Shown in pieces: positions 888 to 58,300 of a DNA stretch of 64,000 nt. The notes under the pieces were generated by a model. The model was not told where the DNA came from, did not search any database, and saw only the letters and a program-made list of their open reading frames with translations. Location: positions 78,675 to 142,674 of the forward strand of contig CAZGEH010000003.1 of NCBI GenBank assembly GCA_964524795.1, written 5' to 3'. A program made the translations under genes and the position numbers. Every line of letters begins with the position of its first letter. Positions within the stretch are counted from its first letter, which is position 1. Origin of the DNA: an uncultured Acidobacteriota bacterium. Lineage in GTDB: Bacteria > Acidobacteriota > UBA6911 > RPQK01 > JAPXNP01.

Positions 888-1090
888 CGCCAGCGGCCTG
901 AGCCTTGGAGTTTGCCGTCCACTGCGCCGCTCGCGTTCCTAGGGAGGAGGTAACGGGGTAGCGAGGTAGCGGGGTTGCGGGGCTCCGCGGGGCCTTGGAG
1001 AGGGGCACGGGCAAGCGGCGCCAACCGTCCAACCCGGGCGAGACGCCCGGGCCACGGCAGGCCCCCGGGGAGCTTTCGCCTGGACTGTCT

Positions 1091-1187
1091 GGCACCCCTT
1101 CAGGCTGCCGTCCCTGTTCTTGCTCCGTCCGTCCCGGAGGTTTCCGCTGCGCTTCGACCTCCGGCTATTCTCTGGCATCCCTCCGGG
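1091..1187 (+). repeat. Copy A of a ~100-nt structured repeat (GGCACCCCTTCAGGgTGCC...CCGGAGGtttccgct.cgcttcgaCCTCCGG...CATCCCTCCGGGA)
   Basis: Near-identical sequence recurs at 55910-56005 and 57576-57672 in the same orientation. It contains two internal hairpins (GGCACCC/GGGTGCC and CCGGAGG/CCTCCGG). An upstream CCCGGGC-loop-GCCCGGG hairpin (1028-1062) is shared with copy C (57551-57575). Copy A is flanked by G-rich short tandem units (GTAGCGGGG/TAACGGGG) at 950-995 and 1190-1212. Confidence 0.6.
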
Positions 1188-1392
1188 ACGGGGGTAGCGG
1201 GGTAACGGGGTTTTCTGTGAAGGCCGCGGTGAGATGGGGTCTGGCGGACGCCGGCTCCGGCCTGCCGGGCCAGCCCCCCGCAGCGCGGCCGTCTCGACCG
1301 TGCATCACCGGTCTCACCGGCGATATCCTTGAAGTAGAGCCGGGTCCGGCGGACGGGAGACTCCGATACGCCGTCCCCGGCCGGAACCCCAG

Positions 1393-4077: not shown

Positions 4078-5391
4078 ATGCGCCTTCTCTTGACCCTGTC
4101 CTGCTGGATCCTGACTGTGCTGCCGATAATGGCGCAGGCGTCCCGCCCGCTGAGCCTGCGGGAAGCGGTCCGCCTGGCAGTGGAGGGTGGCGACGTCCGC
4201 GTGCGCCTTGCCCGCGAACAGACCCACCTGGAGGAGAGCCGGGCCGCCCAGGCCCGCTCCGCTCTGCTGCCGCATCTGTACGGCGATCTGAGCGCCCGGC
4301 GTCAGACCGTCAACCTGGAGGCGTTGGGTCTTCGACCCTCCGGGCTTTTCCAGCCACCCACCCTGGTAGGCCCTTTCGGCACGGTGGATGCCCGCGCCGA
4401 GATCAGGCAATCGGTGTTCGACCTGGGTGACTTCAGACGGTTTCGGGCGGCGCGGACCGGCGTCGAGGCCTCCCAGCTCGAGGCGGAAGACCAGGCGGAG
4501 CAGGCGGCCCAGGCGGCAGCCGAAACCTACCTTGAAGCCCTGCGGGCCCGTGCCTCCTGGCGGACCGCCCAGGCTTCCGTCGAGCTGGCCCGGGAGCTGC
4601 TGGGACTGGCCCAGGAGCGCAAAGACGCTGGCACCGGCACCGGGATCGAGGTGACCCGCGCCCAGGTCCAGCTCTCCCGGGAAGAACAGAATCTGCTGCT
4701 GGCGGAGTACACCTGGCGGAATGCCCTGCTCCGACTGAAGCGCCTTGTCGGGATCGACCTGGGAGAGCCGCTGGAGCTGACCGATGAACTGGGCCGGACG
4801 ATCCACCGGCTCAACATGGAGGAGGCCATGGATGTGGCCCACACCCACCGGCCCGATCTGCAGGCGCAGCGGCTGCGGGTGGAGGCCGCCCGGACCGCCT
4901 GGGAAGCCGCCCGGGCGGACCGGTTTCCTTCGCTGGCGGCGGTCGCCAACTACGGAACCATCGGATCGGCTGTCGGGGACACGATCCCCACCTGGACGGC
5001 CGGTCTTGCCCTTGAACTCCCCATCTTCGACGGCGGGTTGACCGATGCCCGGCGGGGAGAAAAGGCGGCGGCCTGGCGGGCCGAGCAGATCCGCCTGCAG
5101 GACCTGGAGCGCCAAGTCGAGCTGGAGATCCGCCTCGCGCTTTCCGCCGTGACGCTGGCCGAAGGGGAGGTGGGAGTGGCGGATCGCACAGTGGATCAGG
5201 TGACCCGGGAGCTGGAACAGGCCCGGCGCCGATACGGCGCCGGCGTCACCACCAGCCTGGAAATCACCGACGCCCAGACCCGCCTGCACGAGGCCGAAGA
5301 AGCTCGGGTATTGGCTCTCTACCGCTTCAATCTGGCCCGCATTCAACTGGCGGCTGCCGTGGGCAGCCTGCGAAAGGAGCTTCTGCCGTGA
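4078..5391 (+). CDS. TolC-family outer-membrane efflux protein
   Basis: Signal peptide MRLLLTLSCWILTVLPIMAQA, followed by the duplicated coiled-coil/beta-barrel OEP architecture (two repeats with ...LE..R..A.. and YTWRNALLRL...). 4-nt overlap with the next gene. Confidence 0.8.
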   Translation: MRLLLTLSCWILTVLPIMAQASRPLSLREAVRLAVEGGDVRVRLAREQTHLEESRAAQARSALLPHLYGDLSARRQTVNLEALGLRPSGLFQPPTLVGPFGTVDARAEIRQSVFDLGDFRRFRAARTGVEASQLEAEDQAEQAAQAAAETYLEALRARASWRTAQASVELARELLGLAQERKDAGTGTGIEVTRAQVQLSREEQNLLLAEYTWRNALLRLKRLVGIDLGEPLELTDELGRTIHRLNMEEAMDVAHTHRPDLQAQRLRVEAARTAWEAARADRFPSLAAVANYGTIGSAVGDTIPTWTAGLALELPIFDGGLTDARRGEKAAAWRAEQIRLQDLERQVELEIRLALSAVTLAEGEVGVADRTVDQVTRELEQARRRYGAGVTTSLEITDAQTRLHEAEEARVLALYRFNLARIQLAAAVGSLRKELLP

Positions 5392-6608
5392 CGCTCAACC
5401 GCGCGCGTTTCGCCGTGATCCCAGTGGTCCTGTTGCTCCTCCTCGCCCTCTGGTGGTGGAGGAACACGGACGGCTCCGAGTCCGGACTGGAGTTCTCGGG
5501 CAACATCGAGGCCACCGAGATCGACATCGCCTTCAAGACCTCAGGGCGGATCGTGGAGCTGCTGGCCGATGAAGGCGACCAGGTGGAAGCCGGAAAACTG
5601 TTGGCCCGGCTCGATGAAGATCAGCTCCGGGCGCAGCAGCGGGAGATTCTCGCCCAGTTGGAGGGGCTCCGCTCGCGCGAACGGGAACTGCATGCCCTGA
5701 TCCGGCTCCAGGAAGAGAACCTGGACGCCCAGTTGCAGCTCCGGCAGGCCGAGAAGCGACAGGCGGAAGCCCTGCTGGACCAGCTCCAGGAAGGCAGCCG
5801 GCGCCAGGAGGTCGAGCAGGCCCGGGCGGCGGTTGAGGCCGCCCAAGCGGAGGAGTTCCGGGCGCGCTCGGACTGGGAACGGGCCCAGACGCTGTTCGCC
5901 GCGGAGGATATCTCGGCGGCCCAGCGTGACCAGGCGGAGTCCGCCTGGAAACGGGCGCGGGCCGAACTGGCCCGGGCGGAGGAGCAGCTCGCGCTGGTTC
6001 AGGAGGGTCCCCGCCGGCAGGACCTGGAGGCGGCCCAGGCCGGGGTTGCCAAAGCGGAAGCAGCCCTGCGTCAGGCGTCGGCCCAGGGATTGGACATCGC
6101 TCGCAGCCGCCAGGCCCTGCAGACGCTGGCCGCGGAGGCCGAGGCCTTGCAGGCCCGGCTGGCCCAGGTGGAAAGCCGCCTGGCGGACTGCCAGGTGACC
6201 GCGCCCATGGACGGTATCGTGCTCAAGCGGACGGCGGAGCCGGGGGAGATCGTGGCGCCTGGAACTCCGGTGATGACGTTGGGTGACCTGTCCCGTCCCT
6301 GGGTTCGAGGCTATGTGCCCGCGGCTCGGCTGGGGCAGGTCAAACTGGGTGACCGCGTTGAGATCCGGACCGATTCCTATCCGGACCGGGTCTATGAGGG
6401 AAGGGTGGTATTCATCTCCGACCAGGCCGAGTTTACCCCCAAGCAGATCGAGACCCGGGAGGAGCGGGTCAGGCTGGTGTACCGGATCAAGGTGGACGTG
6501 GCCAATCCCCACCAGGAACTGAAGCTGAACATGCCGGTGGATGCCCGGATCCAGCTTGCCGGCCGGGGAACTTCCGGAATCCAGGGAGAAGGGGGAGGGA
6601 ACCGGTGA
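5388..6608 (+). CDS. HlyD-family membrane-fusion (periplasmic adaptor) protein
   Basis: N-terminal TM, long Q/E/A/R-rich coiled coil, C-terminal beta domain (ITAPMDGIVLKR...GEIVAPGTPVMTLGDL). Start overlaps the TolC-like stop (ATGA-type coupling). Confidence 0.8.
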   Translation: MTLNRARFAVIPVVLLLLLALWWWRNTDGSESGLEFSGNIEATEIDIAFKTSGRIVELLADEGDQVEAGKLLARLDEDQLRAQQREILAQLEGLRSRERELHALIRLQEENLDAQLQLRQAEKRQAEALLDQLQEGSRRQEVEQARAAVEAAQAEEFRARSDWERAQTLFAAEDISAAQRDQAESAWKRARAELARAEEQLALVQEGPRRQDLEAAQAGVAKAEAALRQASAQGLDIARSRQALQTLAAEAEALQARLAQVESRLADCQVTAPMDGIVLKRTAEPGEIVAPGTPVMTLGDLSRPWVRGYVPAARLGQVKLGDRVEIRTDSYPDRVYEGRVVFISDQAEFTPKQIETREERVRLVYRIKVDVANPHQELKLNMPVDARIQLAGRGTSGIQGEGGGNR

Positions 6609-7597
6609 ATCCGAGGGCAGACACACCCGTTTTCCCGGGTACTCCACCGAACCCGCAGGCACCGGCGGTCGAAGCGGTGGGGCTGACCCGGCGCTTCGGG
6701 CCGGTGACCGCGGTGGCGGGACTCGACCTCACGGTCAGCCGCGGTGAGATTTTCGGGCTGGTGGGTCCGGACGGAGCGGGCAAGACCACGGTGATGAGGT
6801 TGCTGTGCGGTCTGCTGAACCCCGACGGGGGCCAGGTGACAGTCGGCGGCCGGGATGTCTCCTCGGACCCGGCGGGAGTCCGCGACCGGATCGGATACAT
6901 GCCCCAGCGATTCGGCCTCTATCTGGACCTAACGGTGGAGGAGAACCTGGACTTCTACGCCGATCTGTTCGGGGTCGGCGACCCGTTGCGCGGCGAGCTG
7001 ACGGAACGGTTGCTGAGGATGACCCGGATGTCCGCTTTCCGGCGCCGGCCCGCCGGACAGCTCTCGGGCGGCATGAAACAGAAACTGGGGCTGATGTGCG
7101 CGCTGCTGCACCAGCCCGAGGTGCTGTTCCTGGATGAACCGACCAACGGGGTCGATCCGATCTCCCGGAGGGACTTCTGGGTCATTCTTTACGAACTGGT
7201 CAAGGGGGGGCTGACCGTTGTGTTGTCCACCGCGTACCTGGATGAAGCCGAACGTTGCAACCGCGTAGGGCTGATGTACCGGGGCAGACTGGCGGCCTGT
7301 GACTCGCCGGGGAAACTGGGGCGGCACGTGGAGGAGCCCTGTGTCGCGGTCCGGACCTCGGACCAGCGCCGGGCACGGGAGCTGCTGCAGACCACCCCGG
7401 GAATCCTGGCGGTGATTCCAGCGGGAGCGTGGTTGCACGTGTTCGCCACCCCTGAACTGGTGGAGACGGAGGAGCTGGGCCGGCGTCTGGCGGGCCTGGA
7501 TCCGGTGGAGGTGGAGCCGATCCGGCCTTCCGTGGAGGACCTTTTCATCGCCCTGGTGCGGAAGCAGGAGCTGAGACATGGCCACGCCCGCGGTTGA
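6605..7597 (+). CDS. ABC transporter ATP-binding protein (first of two)
   Basis: Walker A GPDGAGKTT, signature LSGGMKQKLGL, Walker B LLFLDEPT. Confidence 0.9.
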   Translation: MNPRADTPVFPGTPPNPQAPAVEAVGLTRRFGPVTAVAGLDLTVSRGEIFGLVGPDGAGKTTVMRLLCGLLNPDGGQVTVGGRDVSSDPAGVRDRIGYMPQRFGLYLDLTVEENLDFYADLFGVGDPLRGELTERLLRMTRMSAFRRRPAGQLSGGMKQKLGLMCALLHQPEVLFLDEPTNGVDPISRRDFWVILYELVKGGLTVVLSTAYLDEAERCNRVGLMYRGRLAACDSPGKLGRHVEEPCVAVRTSDQRRARELLQTTPGILAVIPAGAWLHVFATPELVETEELGRRLAGLDPVEVEPIRPSVEDLFIALVRKQELRHGHARG

Positions 7598-8522
7598 AAC
7601 AGTGGAACTGACCCGGCGTTTCGGCTCCTTCACCGCCGTGGACCGGGTGTCGCTGACGGTCCAGCAGGGGGAGATCTTCGGTTTCCTCGGTTCCAACGGG
7701 GCGGGGAAGTCGACCACCATCCGGATGCTCTGTGGACTGCTGCAGCCCACCTCCGGCCAGGCGCGGGTGGGTGGGTTCGATGTCTACCGGGAACCGGAGA
7801 AGATCAAGCAAAGCATCGGTTACATGTCCCAGCGGTTCTCGTTGTACGACGAACTGTCGGTGGAGGAGAACCTGGACTTCTTCGCCGGGGTCTATAGCGT
7901 CCCCAGCCGGCTGCGGGAGGCGCGCAAGAACGAGCTCCTCGAAGAAATGGGCTTGCGGGAAATGCGGCGGCGCAGCACCTCCGTGCTGCCGGGCGGCCTC
8001 AAGCAGCGGCTGGCGCTGGCCTGCGCCGTGCTTCATGAACCGCCGATCCTGTTTCTGGATGAGCCGACCTCGGGCGTGGATCCGGCGGCCCGCCGGGAGT
8101 TCTGGGACCTCATCTACCGGCTGGCCGAAGCCGGGCGCACGGTGTTCGTCACCACCCACTATATGGACGAGGCCGAGTACTGCGGCCGGCTGGCCCTGAT
8201 GGACGCCGGACGCGTCATCGCCCTCGACAGCCCTGACGGGCTGCGCCGCGGTCTGGCCGGGGAACACTTCATTCAGCTTGAGGTCAGCGATGTGCTGCAG
8301 GCGGTGCGGGCAACCGCCGACCTTCCGGGTGTTCGGGATGCCGCCATCTTCGGCGGGGGGATCCGGCTGCGGGTGGCCGACCCGGAACAGGCCGCCCGGC
8401 AACTTCCGCCCTTGCTGGCGTCGCGGGGAATCGCGGTACTGGACATCGGGCAGGTGGAGCCGGGCATCGAAGATGTCTTCGTGCTGAAAGTGGAAACCGA
8501 ACGGCGGCGGGAGGGATCGTGA
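7578..8522 (+). CDS. ABC transporter ATP-binding protein (second of two)
   Basis: Walker A GSNGAGKSTT, signature LPGGLKQRLALA, Walker B ILFLDEPTSG. Together with the preceding gene this resembles the split halves of a YbhF-type tandem ATPase. Confidence 0.9.
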   Translation: MATPAVETVELTRRFGSFTAVDRVSLTVQQGEIFGFLGSNGAGKSTTIRMLCGLLQPTSGQARVGGFDVYREPEKIKQSIGYMSQRFSLYDELSVEENLDFFAGVYSVPSRLREARKNELLEEMGLREMRRRSTSVLPGGLKQRLALACAVLHEPPILFLDEPTSGVDPAARREFWDLIYRLAEAGRTVFVTTHYMDEAEYCGRLALMDAGRVIALDSPDGLRRGLAGEHFIQLEVSDVLQAVRATADLPGVRDAAIFGGGIRLRVADPEQAARQLPPLLASRGIAVLDIGQVEPGIEDVFVLKVETERRREGS

Positions 8523-55564: not shown

Positions 55565-55909
55565 GGAGCCACCGCTTCGCCGATTCGAGAGATCCCGCTC
55601 CGGGCACGGCCGGCGCGGTGAGTGCACTCCCGCATCCGCCAGCAGGGCGGAGCGTCGGTGGGAACCGGGGGCCACTGCAATGATTCCGCCGATCCCTCGC
55701 ACCACGCGGATCAACCCGAAGGCCGCGGCCTAAGCCGTGGAATTCGTCTCTGCATGATGGGGTCGGACCACGGCAAGTGATTGATAAAACACGAATTAGG
55801 CCCAGAAAAGATGGCTCCAGAAGGGCCTCGGGAGCCATTTGTACCCCCCAAGAATCGCCTGTAAGGCACTGTGTGTCCCTGAACCTCGCGGCGGCCAGGT
55901 CGGTTCTCT

Positions 55910-56005
55910 GGCACCCCTTCAGGGTGCCGTCCTGGTTGTTGGTCCGTCCGTTCCGGAGGTTTCCGCTCCGCTCTGACCTCCGGCTACTTTCTGGCAACTC
56001 CTGGG
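55910..56005 (+). repeat. Copy B of the ~100-nt structured repeat
   Basis: GGCACCCCTTCAGGGTGCCGTCCTGGTTGTTGGTCCGTCCGTTCCGGAGGTTTCCGCTCCGCTCTGACCTCCGGCTACTTTCTGGCAACTCCTGGGGGA; more than 85% identical to copies A and C. Confidence 0.6.
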
Positions 56006-56349
56006 GGATGCTTCCGGCTGGGCTCACGTCGGACGGGCGTCCATACCGGCCATGGTTCGGATGACTCTCTACACCGGTGAAGATGCGGTAGCCAAAGCCC
56101 CTGGTCTGGCACAGAGGGGGCTGCCCGCCGTACGACCAATCCAAATAGTGGGCACGAGACCCGGCGGCTTGCGGACCCGTGTTGGCTGTATGTAGTCTGG
56201 GACTCGCTCGGGACCGCATCGGGTATCGTCGGCGTCCAGAACGCCGCCGCGCGCTGGACGACACTCAACGCGAGACCATGGAGGCACGGTCTTTCGAGAT
56301 CCTTGCGGATGTGATTGCTGCAGCCGCCTAGAAGGAGACCCGGTGGGTG

Positions 56350-56670
56350 TGAATGCGCAAAGGCTCGTGACGGAGATGGCGGAGATAAAGGAAGCGCGGC
56401 AACGTTCTGCGGACGGTCCCCTGAGGGGTGTACCTGTTCGGCTCTTAGGCGCAGGGGAAAGCGGACGAGGAATCGGATGTGAACGTGCTTGTGGTCGTCG
56501 ATGATTACGGCAGCTACGGCGCTGAAGTCGAACGGACTGGAACGCTCGGTGCGGAACTTCCGTTGCGGCAGGGGGTGAGCGGGAGCATAGTGTTTTTCCG
56601 GGAATGCGAGTGGCGCGGAGGCGATACACCGTCTCTGGTCACCGTGGGGCAGCAGGCGATCACCGCATGA
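56350..56670 (+). pseudogene. Degraded MNT-type nucleotidyltransferase (antitoxin) paralogue with an in-frame stop and a frameshift
   Basis: The region reads …QRLVTEMAEIKEARQRSADGPLRGV(Y)LFGS*AQGKADEESDVNVLVVVDDYGSYGAEVERTG…, versus intact …LKERLAQLYGERLRGVYIFGSYARGEADEESDLDVLIVLDQVENYSAEIDRTG…. It is followed by an 11-codon stub MKEATRKLLEW that matches the HEPN start MKEEARKLLEK. Confidence 0.55.
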
Positions 56671-56703
56671 AGGAGGCAACCCGTAAGCTTCTCGAGTGGA
56701 CCC

Positions 56704-57024
56704 ATGAAAGAGAAATTACAAGTGGTTCTGGCAAAGCTCAAGGAGAGACTTGCGCAACTCTACGGAGAAAGGCTCAGGGGGGTGTACATCTTTGGTTCAT
56801 ACGCCCGCGGCGAAGCCGATGAGGAGTCGGACCTGGACGTGCTCATCGTCCTGGACCAGGTTGAGAACTACTCGGCCGAGATCGACCGGACCGGCGAAAT
56901 CGTCTCGGCGCTATCGTTGGAATCAGGCTTTACCATCAGCCGGGCATTCGCCTCCGAGGAGCGCTGGCTGGCGGACCAGACGATGTTTTTCTTGAACGTA
57001 CGTGAGGAAGCGGTGTCGGTATGA
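56704..57024 (+). CDS. MNT-family nucleotidyltransferase (minimal NTase; antitoxin of an HEPN/MNT module)
   Basis: GSYARGEADEESDLDVLIV is the Pol-beta-type GS…D.D motif. 106 aa. Its stop overlaps the ATG of the downstream HEPN gene (ATGA). Confidence 0.8.
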   Translation: MKEKLQVVLAKLKERLAQLYGERLRGVYIFGSYARGEADEESDLDVLIVLDQVENYSAEIDRTGEIVSALSLESGFTISRAFASEERWLADQTMFFLNVREEAVSV

Positions 57025-57406
57025 AGGAAGAAGCCCGAAAGCTCCTGGAGAAGGCGGAACGCGCCCTGGAAGCGGCGCAAAGGCTGCACCGAGACGGGGA
57101 CTACGAATCCGCGGCGGGACGGGTGTACTATGTAATGTTTCACGCGGCTCAGGCCCTGCTGCGGCAGCAAGACCTGCGTTATCGCAAGCATGCAGGGGTC
57201 CACGGTGCCTTCGGGGAGCACTTCGCCAAGACCGGTCTGCTAATGTCAAGTACCACCGTTACTTGCTGGATGCCTTCGATGATCGCCTTCGCGCGGATTA
57301 CGAGATTGACGGCCTCGCAGGGCTGGGGCGTCGCTCTGCGGGCTTACTCCACGGTTTCAGGCTGAGTCGACGCCTCCAGCGCCGGGCACACGCGGCGCCG
57401 CCCTGA
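57021..57406 (+). pseudogene. HEPN-domain toxin gene, frameshifted (-1 near 57245)
   Basis: Frame 1: MKEEARKLLEKAERALEAAQRLHRDGDYESAAGRVYYVMFHAAQALLRQQDLRYRKHAGVHGAFGEHFAKTGLL, with the R-x4-H HEPN motif. It then loses similarity. The canonical continuation …KYHRYLLDAFDDRLRADYEIDG… is in a neighbouring frame (ORF 57002..57406). Confidence 0.7.
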
Positions 57407-57575
57407 CAAGCCGACCGCCCGTGGCTCAGATCTCGGCCGTGCTACCTTCGCGGGCGGGATCGTCCCCATCTGGCACCGAGAGAAGAGTTCTTCTGTCCTG
57501 CCGGCGATTCTTTGCCGGGAGAAGGGCACGGAGGATCGGCGCCTGCCGTCCCACCCGGGCAAAACGCCCGGGCCT

Positions 57576-57672
57576 GGCACCCCTTCAGGGTGCCGTGCTG
57601 GTTGTTGGTCCGTCCGTTCCGGAGCTCTCCGCTCCGCTTCGACCTCCGGCTACTTTCTGGCATCCCTCCGGG
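57576..57672 (+). repeat. Copy C of the ~100-nt structured repeat
   Basis: GGCACCCCTTCAGGGTGCCGTGCTGGTTGTTGGTCCGTCCGTTCCGGAGCTCTCCGCTCCGCTTCGACCTCCGGCTACTTTCTGGCATCCCTCCGGGA, preceded by a CCCGGGCaaaacGCCCGGG hairpin as in copy A. Confidence 0.6.
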
Positions 57673-57841
57673 ATGCCTCGTTCAGCCTCGTTCACTGGCA
57701 TTCGCGGCGCTCTTGTCTGGTCTATCCCCGCCTCTCCAGCTGGCTTGGGGTGCCTGCCGCCGCTTCGGTTTGCTACAATCTGCAACTTGGGGCATTTGCC
57801 TCGGAGGAACCAAGGAACCACAATCGGGAGGGGGAAGAGAA

Positions 57842-58300
57842 ATGAGACGTTTGGTTACGCTGCCCCTCGTGGTGCTGTTGAGTGCCGGTATCTTCGCAGC
57901 GTGTCAGCGCGTCGAAGCACCGGCTCCGTCGCGCGTCGAGCCTGCGAAAGATGGGATCTTCGTGCATATCAAGTCTGGACCGGATGATGCTCACAGCGTG
58001 CTCATGGGATTGCACCTCGCGCAGAGGATGGCCTCAGACCGTGACGTTTTCGTTTACTTCGACGTCAAGGGCATCAATGTGGTCCTCAGGTCCTCGGAAG
58101 ACCTTACCTTGGAGCCCTTCGGGTCGGCCCGGGAGATGATCGCCGACCTTCTCTCACGGGGCGTTTCAATCCAGGCTTGCCCCGGTTGGCTGAAAGCTCT
58201 CGGCCACACGCCGGAAGAACTTTTGGAGGGAGTCCAGGTGGCCGACAAGGACGATTTCTTCACCTTCACCGCCGGGCGGATTCTGACGATTGACTACTAG
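57842..58300 (+). CDS. DsrE/DsrF-like (YchN-fold) lipoprotein, hypothetical
   Basis: RBS GGGAGGGGGAAGAG; signal peptide MRRLVTLPLVVLLSAGIFAAC (lipobox). IFVHIKSGPDDAHSVLMGLHLAQ…VFVYFDVKGINVV…IQACPGW resembles the DsrE/DsrF-like sulfur-relay fold. Local GC is lower than the surrounding sequence. Confidence 0.45.
   Translation: MRRLVTLPLVVLLSAGIFAACQRVEAPAPSRVEPAKDGIFVHIKSGPDDAHSVLMGLHLAQRMASDRDVFVYFDVKGINVVLRSSEDLTLEPFGSAREMIADLLSRGVSIQACPGWLKALGHTPEELLEGVQVADKDDFFTFTAGRILTIDY

Follow-up and report, generated by a model that had tools for sequence, protein, structure and literature searches.

Repetitive extragenic palindromic (REP) sequences, with the bacterial interspersed mosaic elements (BIMEs, or REPINs) that they form, and the small Y1 (HUH) transposases associated with them (the RAYT, or TnpA-REP, proteins) make up the systems known as REPtrons, which are described in Escherichia coli, Pseudomonas and Stenotrophomonas. 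The largest REP super-family is marked by the tetranucleotide GTAG (PMC3733652), which is also the guide-like motif in the substrates of TnpA-REP (PMC6006769, PMC8266576). In the classification of Y1 transposases by Quentin et al. (2018, Table 1), subclass 1.2 has the tyrosine motif consensus YIKNQKEHH and a median length of 148 aa, and its entry reads 'no' for REP and lists mostly Cyanobacteria and Bacteroidetes (PMC6006769). A further group of hairpins, Acido-Lenti-1 (Rfam RF01687; Weinberg et al. 2010), is annotated, without any link to a transposase, as a small RNA (sRNA) of unknown function. Here we describe a repeat of about 105 nt that is present in three copies in a 64,000-nt stretch of DNA from an uncultured Acidobacteriota bacterium (contig CAZGEH010000003.1, positions 78,675 to 142,674; called the window below) and that combines traits of these groups. 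As outlined here, the three repeats are most probably solo copies of a selfish REP-type DNA element belonging to a REPtron-like system, and not a new RNA gene.

A repeat search of the window returned exactly three direct copies, named A, B and C here (spans 1089-1188; 55908-56007, 83% to the first; and 57574-57673, 88%), and no fourth. This agrees with the core observation of an earlier, sequence-only reading of the same DNA, which had nevertheless overstated their likeness as near-identical: over 109 aligned nt, the identities are 78.9% (A/B), 82.6% (A/C) and 85.3% (B/C). Both hairpins recognized in that reading are present, P1 (GGCACCCC/GG(G/C)TGCC in the window copies) and P2 (CCGGAG(G/C)T/ACCTCCGG), but a third one at the 3' end, P3 (GCAUCCC-UCC-GGGAUGC), had been overlooked, so that each copy contains three (Table 1). 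P3 resembles P1, and the heptanucleotide TCTGGCA precedes each of the two. The stems are not all perfect, P3 of copy B having one mismatch and one wobble and P2 of copy C one mismatch (GAGC). The motif CTGGCAYCCCTYCRGGRTGCC has five matches where 0.07 would be expected by chance. All three copies are intergenic singlets located just downstream of plus-strand genes, in the same orientation as the flanking plus-strand genes, as had been noticed before. They are accompanied in the window by no promoter-like or terminator-like signal and no U-tract, and when folded one by one, on either strand, they give inconsistent structures, with weak z-scores for A and B. Visual inspection also led us to discard TGGCAC as part of a sigma-54 promoter, since its distance to any GC element does not fit.

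The repeat belongs to a family that is found well beyond this genome. An exact search with the 20-nt core CCTCCGGCTAYTYTCTGGCA across 185,579 species genomes (GTDB) produced 28 matches in 27 loci. Full three-hairpin architecture, i.e., P1 (TTCTGGCACCC-loop-GGGTGC), a variable spacer, P2 (CCGGAGGT-loop-ACCTCCGG), the linker CTACTYTCTGGCA and a P3 stem of 5-7 bp, is seen in 26 of these matches, the other two being chance matches in coding-like sequence. These come from metagenome-assembled genomes (MAGs) of Verrucomicrobiota (Limisphaerales, Pedosphaera, Opitutales), Acidobacteriota (Pyrinomonadaceae) and Phycisphaerae, a few of the MAGs carrying doubtful labels. A covariance model of the element, R1, identified 57 strong copies in the collected loci (28 of them not selected by the core pattern) and, in the window, only the three already known. 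The occurrence of copies across several phyla means that the window repeats are not simply a three-copy segmental duplication. Scanning viral contigs with the core pattern gave no match, and a metagenome scan with the lineage-specific pattern TCCGTCCGTNCCGGAGNNNTCCGC gave one locus (L031) that lacks the element and represents a chance match, the source sample being apparently missing from the scanned collection. In the other genomes the elements also occur in close association, either as head-to-head pairs 0-10 nt apart (L004, L007, L012, L014, L027), as tail-to-tail pairs about 6 nt apart (L005, L018, L030) or as a group of four alternating copies (L011), and at least 11 copies are contained in three 8-kb loci (L005, L018, L030) of one MAG. 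In L005, L018, L030, L032 and L038, two P2 subtypes can be distinguished, 'GGTCnnCGC...CGACC' and 'GGTRTCG...CTCAACC', and the stem of the second often shows a G-C pair in place of A-U. One element of each subtype is combined in tail-to-tail dimers, and in three REPtron-like loci the first subtype lies upstream of the transposase gene tnpA and the second downstream of it.

Alignment of the 57 copies to R1 provided the covariation check suggested by the sequence-only reading, and all three stems are supported by it. Standard pairs occupy 97.4% of the stem cells, as compared to 87.3% in column shuffles, and double-sided changes occur at 10 of the 20 pairs (87 cells). Of 500 shuffles, not one attains these figures, and pairing amounts to 27-52% in slid controls. 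The 3' arm of P2 was fixed by the search pattern, but this hairpin covaries even outside the pattern-selected copies (A-U, G-C and U-A at one pair), the variants in copies found by the model only including CCGGAGGT/ACCTCCGG, CCGGGGGT/ACCCCCGG and CCGGTGGT/ACCACCGG. Directly after P2 stands CTAC in 54 of the 57 copies, including 26 of the 28 that were not pattern-selected, which on the complementary strand amounts to GTAG at the 5' foot of the hairpin. In the window, this tetranucleotide is CTAC in copies B and C and CTAT in copy A. The repeats could also be taken for repeated minus-strand coding fragments, a reading suggested by an open reading frame (ORF; MPE[NS]SRRSKRSG.LR.GR..N..G.LKGCQ) that is open on the minus strand across all three copies and begins with ATG in two of them. 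The data refute it and leave it virtually no probability. Variable columns among the window copies are spread 6/4/5 over the codon positions, in line with the lack of a codon pattern reported earlier, indels between family members are not multiples of three, and conservation tracks base-pairing and not amino acids. Element lengths range from 83 to 116 nt (typically about 105) and fall into mod-3 classes of 11/20/26, with no preference for multiples of three. Given such lengths and the absence of codon-position bias, the minus-strand ORF is a by-product, and the repeats are not parts of a conserved protein-coding gene.

The element is also associated with a transposase gene. Inverted copies flank a Y1 transposase gene in all nine loci examined, five of which were selected by the element and four by the protein. 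In four of the element-selected loci, head-to-head pairs 460-480 nt apart enclose an ORF of 152-172 aa; the fifth case (L015) was found by tblastn. The enclosed protein is of the Y1_Tnp/IS200-like type (PF01797, 72-80 bits; NF033573, 62-65 bits) and has 6852 homologues at E<=1e-10, mostly of 147 aa and often labelled 'REP element-mobilizing transposase RayT' by JGI. The other four loci were chosen by protein and taxon alone and come from Lentisphaerae (L032), Hydrogenedentes (L035), Sumerlaeaceae (L037) and Victivallales (L038). In all four, an opposite-strand R1 element ends 12-17 nt before the ATG and a same-strand R1 element starts 11-27 nt after the stop codon, P1 facing the gene on both sides, and no tnpB accompanies tnpA at these loci. 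Because gaps of 11-27 nt are too short for separate insertion sequence (IS) ends, the arrangement is REPtron-like and not that of an IS200/IS605 element. The tyrosine motif of the enzyme is YIKSQDAHH or YIKGQEEHH, which has the class-1 signature Y---Q--HH, and the motifs DHVH, WQ and YIK(S/G)Q(D/E)(A/E)HH together with the length of 147 aa match it to subclass 1.2. Its closest solved structures are those of ISDra2 TnpA, with which DHVHLL aligns to DHVHLL and YIKSQ to YIESQ, and E. coli TnpA-REP was not among the matches in this search of solved-structure sequences. A literature search revealed no prior account of the family nor of REPs with subclass 1.2 enzymes, which is not proof of absence. 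Among the options offered by the sequence-only reading, that of a REP-like element is therefore the one supported, by the multi-copy organization in singlets, inverted dimers and clusters, by the GTAG tag and by the inverted copies around the Y1/HUH gene. Family membership, the conserved hairpins, the organization in dimers and clusters and the linkage to the transposase gene are direct observations.

The sequence-only reading had also proposed a dispersed structured RNA. The structure is indeed conserved, but the molecule is probably the wrong one, as indicated by the adjacent copies on both strands and the rare, symmetric wobbles. In a more specific version of such a reading, which the earlier one did not contain, the repeats would be a divergent Acido-Lenti-1 sRNA, trans-acting or cis-regulatory, encoded on the plus strand downstream of genes and acting through its hairpins and linker. 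Covariation of all three stems would be expected of such an RNA, the window copies are co-oriented with plus-strand genes, copy A has been kept across species (see below), and the 3' parts of two copies resemble the Rfam model: under permissive settings, RF01687 scores 23.9 bits at 57646-57675 in copy C and 16.1 bits in copy A, with no match in copy B. However, the gathering score of this family is 37, and neither the window nor the eight loci scanned with it contained any Rfam match at gathering thresholds. Among 1136 stem cells, moreover, 8 are G-T/T-G and 7 A-C/C-A; wobbles are thus rare (0.7%) and show no strand asymmetry, which is not usual for a transcribed, strand-specific RNA. Abutting inverted dimers and inverted copies around a transposase gene are unexpected for an RNA gene of fixed direction, and the lack of promoter-like or terminator-like signals at the copies also speaks against this reading. 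Taken together, we consider an RNA gene improbable.

The resemblance to Acido-Lenti-1 itself can be explained in another way. The published layout of that motif, an 8-bp hairpin, GGCUA followed by a linker of about 9 nt, and a 5-bp hairpin with a 3-nt loop, is that of P2-linker-P3 (PMC2864571), and the sequence GGCUAUUCUCGGGUGUCCCUACGGGACG of soil_Contig16071 is nearly identical to GGCUAUUCUCUGGCAUCCCUCCGGGACG of copy A over 28 nt. In Acidobacteria and Lentisphaerae, the published copies form multi-copy arrays that involve both strands, and the copies of Lentisphaera and Koribacter are preceded by a P1-like hairpin similar to their 3' hairpin, which makes them three-hairpin units. There are also differences: the P2 loop has 4 nt in the Rfam model and 13-20 nt in the elements described here, and the model spans only two of the three hairpins. 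The elements flanking tnpA in the Sumerlaeaceae locus have a short P2 loop and a full-length RF01687 alignment at 24.4 bits. A Pyrinomonadaceae MAG (L014) contains canonical Acido-Lenti-1 copies (420-465, 2177-2222, 2317-2362 and 5843-5890), two of which score at or above the gathering score (39.8 and 39.4 bits in a permissive-filter run), as well as an R1-type head-to-head dimer (4897-5102). Since this MAG holds both types, two related repeat families coexist in one genome, and from these sequence comparisons we infer that Acido-Lenti-1 and the R1 family are sister REP-type families. The published both-strand arrays with their P1-like hairpin likewise suggest that Acido-Lenti-1 may correspond to P2, linker and P3 of a DNA element of this kind and not to an RNA gene.

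The history of copy A can be followed in a related genome. As stated in the sequence-only reading, copies A and C have in common an extra upstream hairpin, CCCGGGC-loop-GCCCGGG (1025-1053 and 57546-57574, with 0 expected by chance). This hairpin is part of a module of about 50 nt that also contains a GGCGCC palindrome and that is missing from copy B; at copy A, about 35 nt separate the module from P1. A search of the A/C upstream module with R1 recognized no decayed inverted partner in it. Copy A and its module are flanked by tracts of an 8-nt unit (GGGGTAGC / GGGGTAAC / GGGGTTGC) at 951-985 and 1190-1212, with three matches against 0.01 expected. By its proteins, the window groups with an Acidobacteriota MAG, and in this related genome an orthologous copy A occupies the same pyrG-phoD spacer (L041, 819-928; R1 74.9 bits), with flanking genes that are 88-94% identical to those of the window at the nucleotide level. 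A block of 171 nt that extends from the upstream module through P3 is 80% identical between the two, and the remaining spacer is unalignable. Its presence at the orthologous site indicates that copy A is old and predates the split of the two lineages, and it is better conserved than the spacer around it. The 8-nt tracts are absent from the orthologous spacer and could be a lineage-specific tandem repeat in which the copy A block is embedded or a by-product of the processing of this block.

Such conservation brings up the question of whether REP copies have been exapted, i.e., whether solo copies have been taken over by the host as 3'-end mRNA stabilizers, transcription attenuators or protein-binding sites between co-directional genes. 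The identity of copy A and its module to the counterpart in the relative, where the other spacer sequence has diverged beyond alignment, and the location of all three copies just downstream of plus-strand genes fit this idea. Functions of this sort are documented for E. coli REPs (summarized in PMC3733652 and PMC8266576), and by analogy with some REPs it is possible that the solo copies stabilize or terminate upstream mRNA. As things stand, exaptation is nevertheless unlikely to be the explanation: the orientation bias is not significant with three window copies only, no U-tract or terminator-like context is present, and gene conversion among copies could slow divergence as well. Moreover, exaptation is compatible with a REP-type origin of the repeats and is not an alternative to it.

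The other two copies have a different history. Copies B and C, which are 1556 nt apart, enclose what had been described as a decayed tandem MNT/HEPN module. Decay applies to the HEPN toxin gene, which is frameshifted, and to one MNT-like ORF, but the MNT antitoxin gene is intact. The HEPN frameshift is situated near 57240-57250 and leaves a called product of 114 aa; the expected C-terminal part (KYHRYLLDAFDDRLRADYEID) is found in the frame of the ORF 57002-57406, and the match to the HEPN profile stops at position 69 of 117 because the C-terminal half lies in another frame. The same HEPN gene call occurs in two independent assemblies (L001 and L002). The lower-GC islet of the sequence-only reading is visible as a slight dip (56% in the MNT and 61% in the HEPN gene) that is modest against the 64.6% of the window, and its DsrE-like assignment of the 152-aa ORF beyond copy C (57842-58300) is weak, with only 15.7 bits on PF02635 for a cutoff of 22.7. 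In two relatives (L039 and L040), a sulfotransferase gene is followed by a convergent, intact Abhydrolase_10 gene of 760 aa, and no element is present at the corresponding site. Nucleotide synteny with both relatives ends at window position ~55690, which marks the left breakpoint of the segment with copies B and C. Because the relatives have the intact hydrolase gene at this place, it was replaced in the window by a segment that comprises copies B and C together with the toxin-antitoxin remnant. B and C, the most similar pair, lie in a recently rearranged segment.

This segment raises the possibility that B and C serve as sites of recombination or attachment, or that they bound a composite mobile unit with the MNT/HEPN module as its cassette. 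They are direct repeats, the most similar pair (85%), and they bracket 1.56 kb of toxin-antitoxin DNA of slightly lower GC in a segment that is wholly absent from the two relatives. The breakpoint, however, is found 214 nt left of copy B, which means that the replacement event is not bounded by the elements (its right boundary was not located), no integrase, recombinase or transposase is encoded in the window, and elsewhere the family consists of dispersed REPs without cargo. We regard this explanation as very unlikely, and the mobilization of cargo by two direct copies, as B and C bracket MNT/HEPN, likewise has little support. An attachment site, as entertained in the sequence-only reading, is unsupported for the same reasons, there being no integrase or recombinase nearby and the B-C bracket not being the edge of the rearranged segment. 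Nor is the element similar to an integron attC site, since its three hairpins are independent and do not form an overall imperfect palindrome (R''-L''...L'-R'), and no integrase is found among the genes around B and C. The suggestion of a miniature inverted-repeat transposable element (MITE) also fails: the element has no terminal inverted repeats, the similar hairpins at its two ends being direct and not inverted, no target-site duplication is common to the sequences directly adjoining A, B and C, and there is no DDE transposase.

Table 1. Positions of the repeat copies, their parts and neighbouring features in the window
Feature	Position	Strand	Remarks
Copy A	1085..1193	+	Covariance model R1 76.3 bits, E 6e-18; flanked by pyrG (end at 887) and the PhoD-like gene (start called at 1417)
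Copy A, P1	1091-1109		
Copy A, P2	1134-1164		
Copy A, linker	1165-1174		CTAT+TCTCTG
Copy A, P3	1175-1190		
Copy A, upstream module	1003..1053	+	GGGCACGG..CGGCGCC..CCGTCC.ACCCGGGC-loop-GCCCGGGCC
Copy B	55904..56013	+	R1 80.7 bits
Copy B, P1	55910-55928		
Copy B, P2	55953-55983		
Copy B, linker	55984-55993		CTAC
Copy B, P3	55994-56011		
Copy C	57570..57678	+	R1 86.6 bits
Copy C, P1	57576-57594		
Copy C, P2	57619-57649		
Copy C, linker	57650-57659		CTAC
Copy C, P3	57659-57677		
Copy C, upstream module	57524..57573	+	Abuts P1 directly
Abhydrolase_10 gene remnant, last 23 codons	55627..55695	-	tblastn 87% identity, residues 738-760 of the 760-aa L040 protein
Cargo between B and C	56479..57365	+	Context, not element
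Decayed MNT-like ORF	56479-56670	+	No Pfam match
MNT antitoxin gene, intact	56704-57024	+	PF01909, 47.9 bits
HEPN toxin gene, frameshifted	57021-57365	+	PF05168, profile positions 1-69/117 only

Two further repeats were noticed in passing. The window contains a 73-nt direct repeat of 78% identity (6890-6962 and 7815-7887, 925 nt apart) in coding-looking sequence. The Lentisphaerae locus L032 contains, at 472-540, a 69-nt near-perfect GC-rich palindrome that is unrelated to the element and matches several microRNA models on both strands with up to 46 bits, below thresholds.

In the proposed model of the REP-type element, each copy would be a non-autonomous unit of about 105 nt. Its plus strand consists of P1 (TCTGGCA-CCC / GGG-TGC), a variable spacer of 20-30 nt and P2 (CCGGRGGT ... 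ACCYCCGG) followed at once by CTAC, after which a conserved linker, TnTCTGGCA, leads into the P1-like P3. In other genomes, two inverted elements with their P1 ends inward surround the IS200-like Y1 gene of 147 aa, and the further scattered copies would constitute a REP/BIME population. If the transposase works like IS200/IS605 TnpA and E. coli TnpA-REP (PMC6006769, PMC8266576), it would bind the folded hairpins on single-stranded DNA, e.g., at replication forks, and would cut and rejoin the DNA beside the hairpins, which would allow elements to be copied or moved in trans. Candidates for the primary recognition site are the sequence-invariant GTAG-P2 and P1 together with P3, which resemble the left end (LE) and right end (RE) hairpins of an IS.

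Several aspects weigh against this interpretation. The 64-kb window contains no transposase gene or remnant (tblastn, best E 0.02), so that the evidence for the transposase comes from other genomes and a cognate enzyme can only be presumed in this organism. Comparisons yielded no clean pair of filled and empty sites, and both mobility and the exact ends of the element are inferred. The transposase lacks the class-2 signature Y---NP of RAYT proteins and has the class-1 signature Y---Q--HH of subclass 1.2 instead, and the unit, with about 105 nt and three hairpins on one strand, differs from the single palindrome of 20-40 nt of typical REPs. The search pattern itself accounts, through ascertainment, for part of the strong conservation of the core 20-mer. 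In addition, the ~50-nt upstream module of copies A and C is not explained by the REP model, and copy A could be more conserved than its surroundings because of a host function, exerted as RNA or as DNA, instead of selfish persistence.

At the level of the window, three solo REP-like copies, one of them ancient and two in a recently rearranged segment, are an ordinary finding. At the level of the family the result is moderately new, as it provides the enzymes of subclass 1.2 with a candidate substrate and probably changes how an orphan Rfam motif is to be read. The wider proposal, which we consider evenly poised, is that of a previously unrecognised REP-transposase lineage in which a composite, three-hairpin REP of ~105 nt is paired with a subclass 1.2 Y1 enzyme. 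This lineage would span at least Acidobacteriota, Verrucomicrobiota, Lentisphaerota, Planctomycetota, Hydrogenedentes and Sumerlaeota. For genome annotation in Acidobacteriota and the Planctomycetes-Verrucomicrobia-Chlamydiae (PVC) phyla, the result implies that elements of this length are to be regarded as REP-type repeats and not as sRNA genes, which probably holds for Acido-Lenti-1 matches too, and that they are likely causes of assembly breaks. The subclass 1.2 Y1 transposases, so far with no known substrate, would gain a testable candidate in the form of a GTAG-tagged hairpin between two similar hairpins, short enough to be made as a synthetic oligonucleotide.

The element can finally be set against the described systems in which small Y1 transposases act on, or are associated with, hairpin repeats. 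With the IS200/IS605 family it shares an IS200-like transposase, recognizable by its NF033573 match and its DHVHLL and Y---Q motifs, and the presence on one strand of P1 and P3, which recalls the LE and RE hairpins recognized by TnpA; the transposase gene, however, is located between two whole inverted elements and not inside a single element between LE and RE. TIRtrons (Di Nocera et al. 2013, PMC3733652) also have a Y1 transposase gene between long inverted repeats, form moderately abundant repeat families that occur singly, as dimers or in groups, and are found in hosts that include Acidobacteria such as Koribacter versatilis. In contrast to the proteins described here, their TIRYT transposases are mostly of subclass 2.1 with C-terminal helix-turn-helix (HTH) domains, and their terminal inverted repeats share a GGGGWSAS motif (PMC6006769) that is missing from this family. 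The closest parallel is that with the REP/BIME repeats and RAYT/TnpA-REP enzymes of REPtrons. Both are extragenic, multi-copy hairpin repeats with GTAG at the 5' foot of a hairpin, both occur as singlets, head-to-head or tail-to-tail dimers and alternating clusters (the latter two, in the present family, outside the window only), and in both a small Y1/HUH gene lies between inverted copies. Even the two P2 subtypes that pair within dimers have a counterpart in the Y and Z REPs of E. coli BIMEs. Beyond the differences in unit and enzyme class named above, the present family is distinguished by P1 and P3 being alike in direct orientation and by its hosts, which are Acidobacteriota, PVC phyla, Hydrogenedentes and Sumerlaeota and not Proteobacteria. 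The family would represent a second, independent case in which a small HUH enzyme, here of class 1 and not of class 2, coexists with many hairpin repeats that are non-autonomous, and as such would bear on the origin of REP-RAYT partnerships from IS200-like ancestors.

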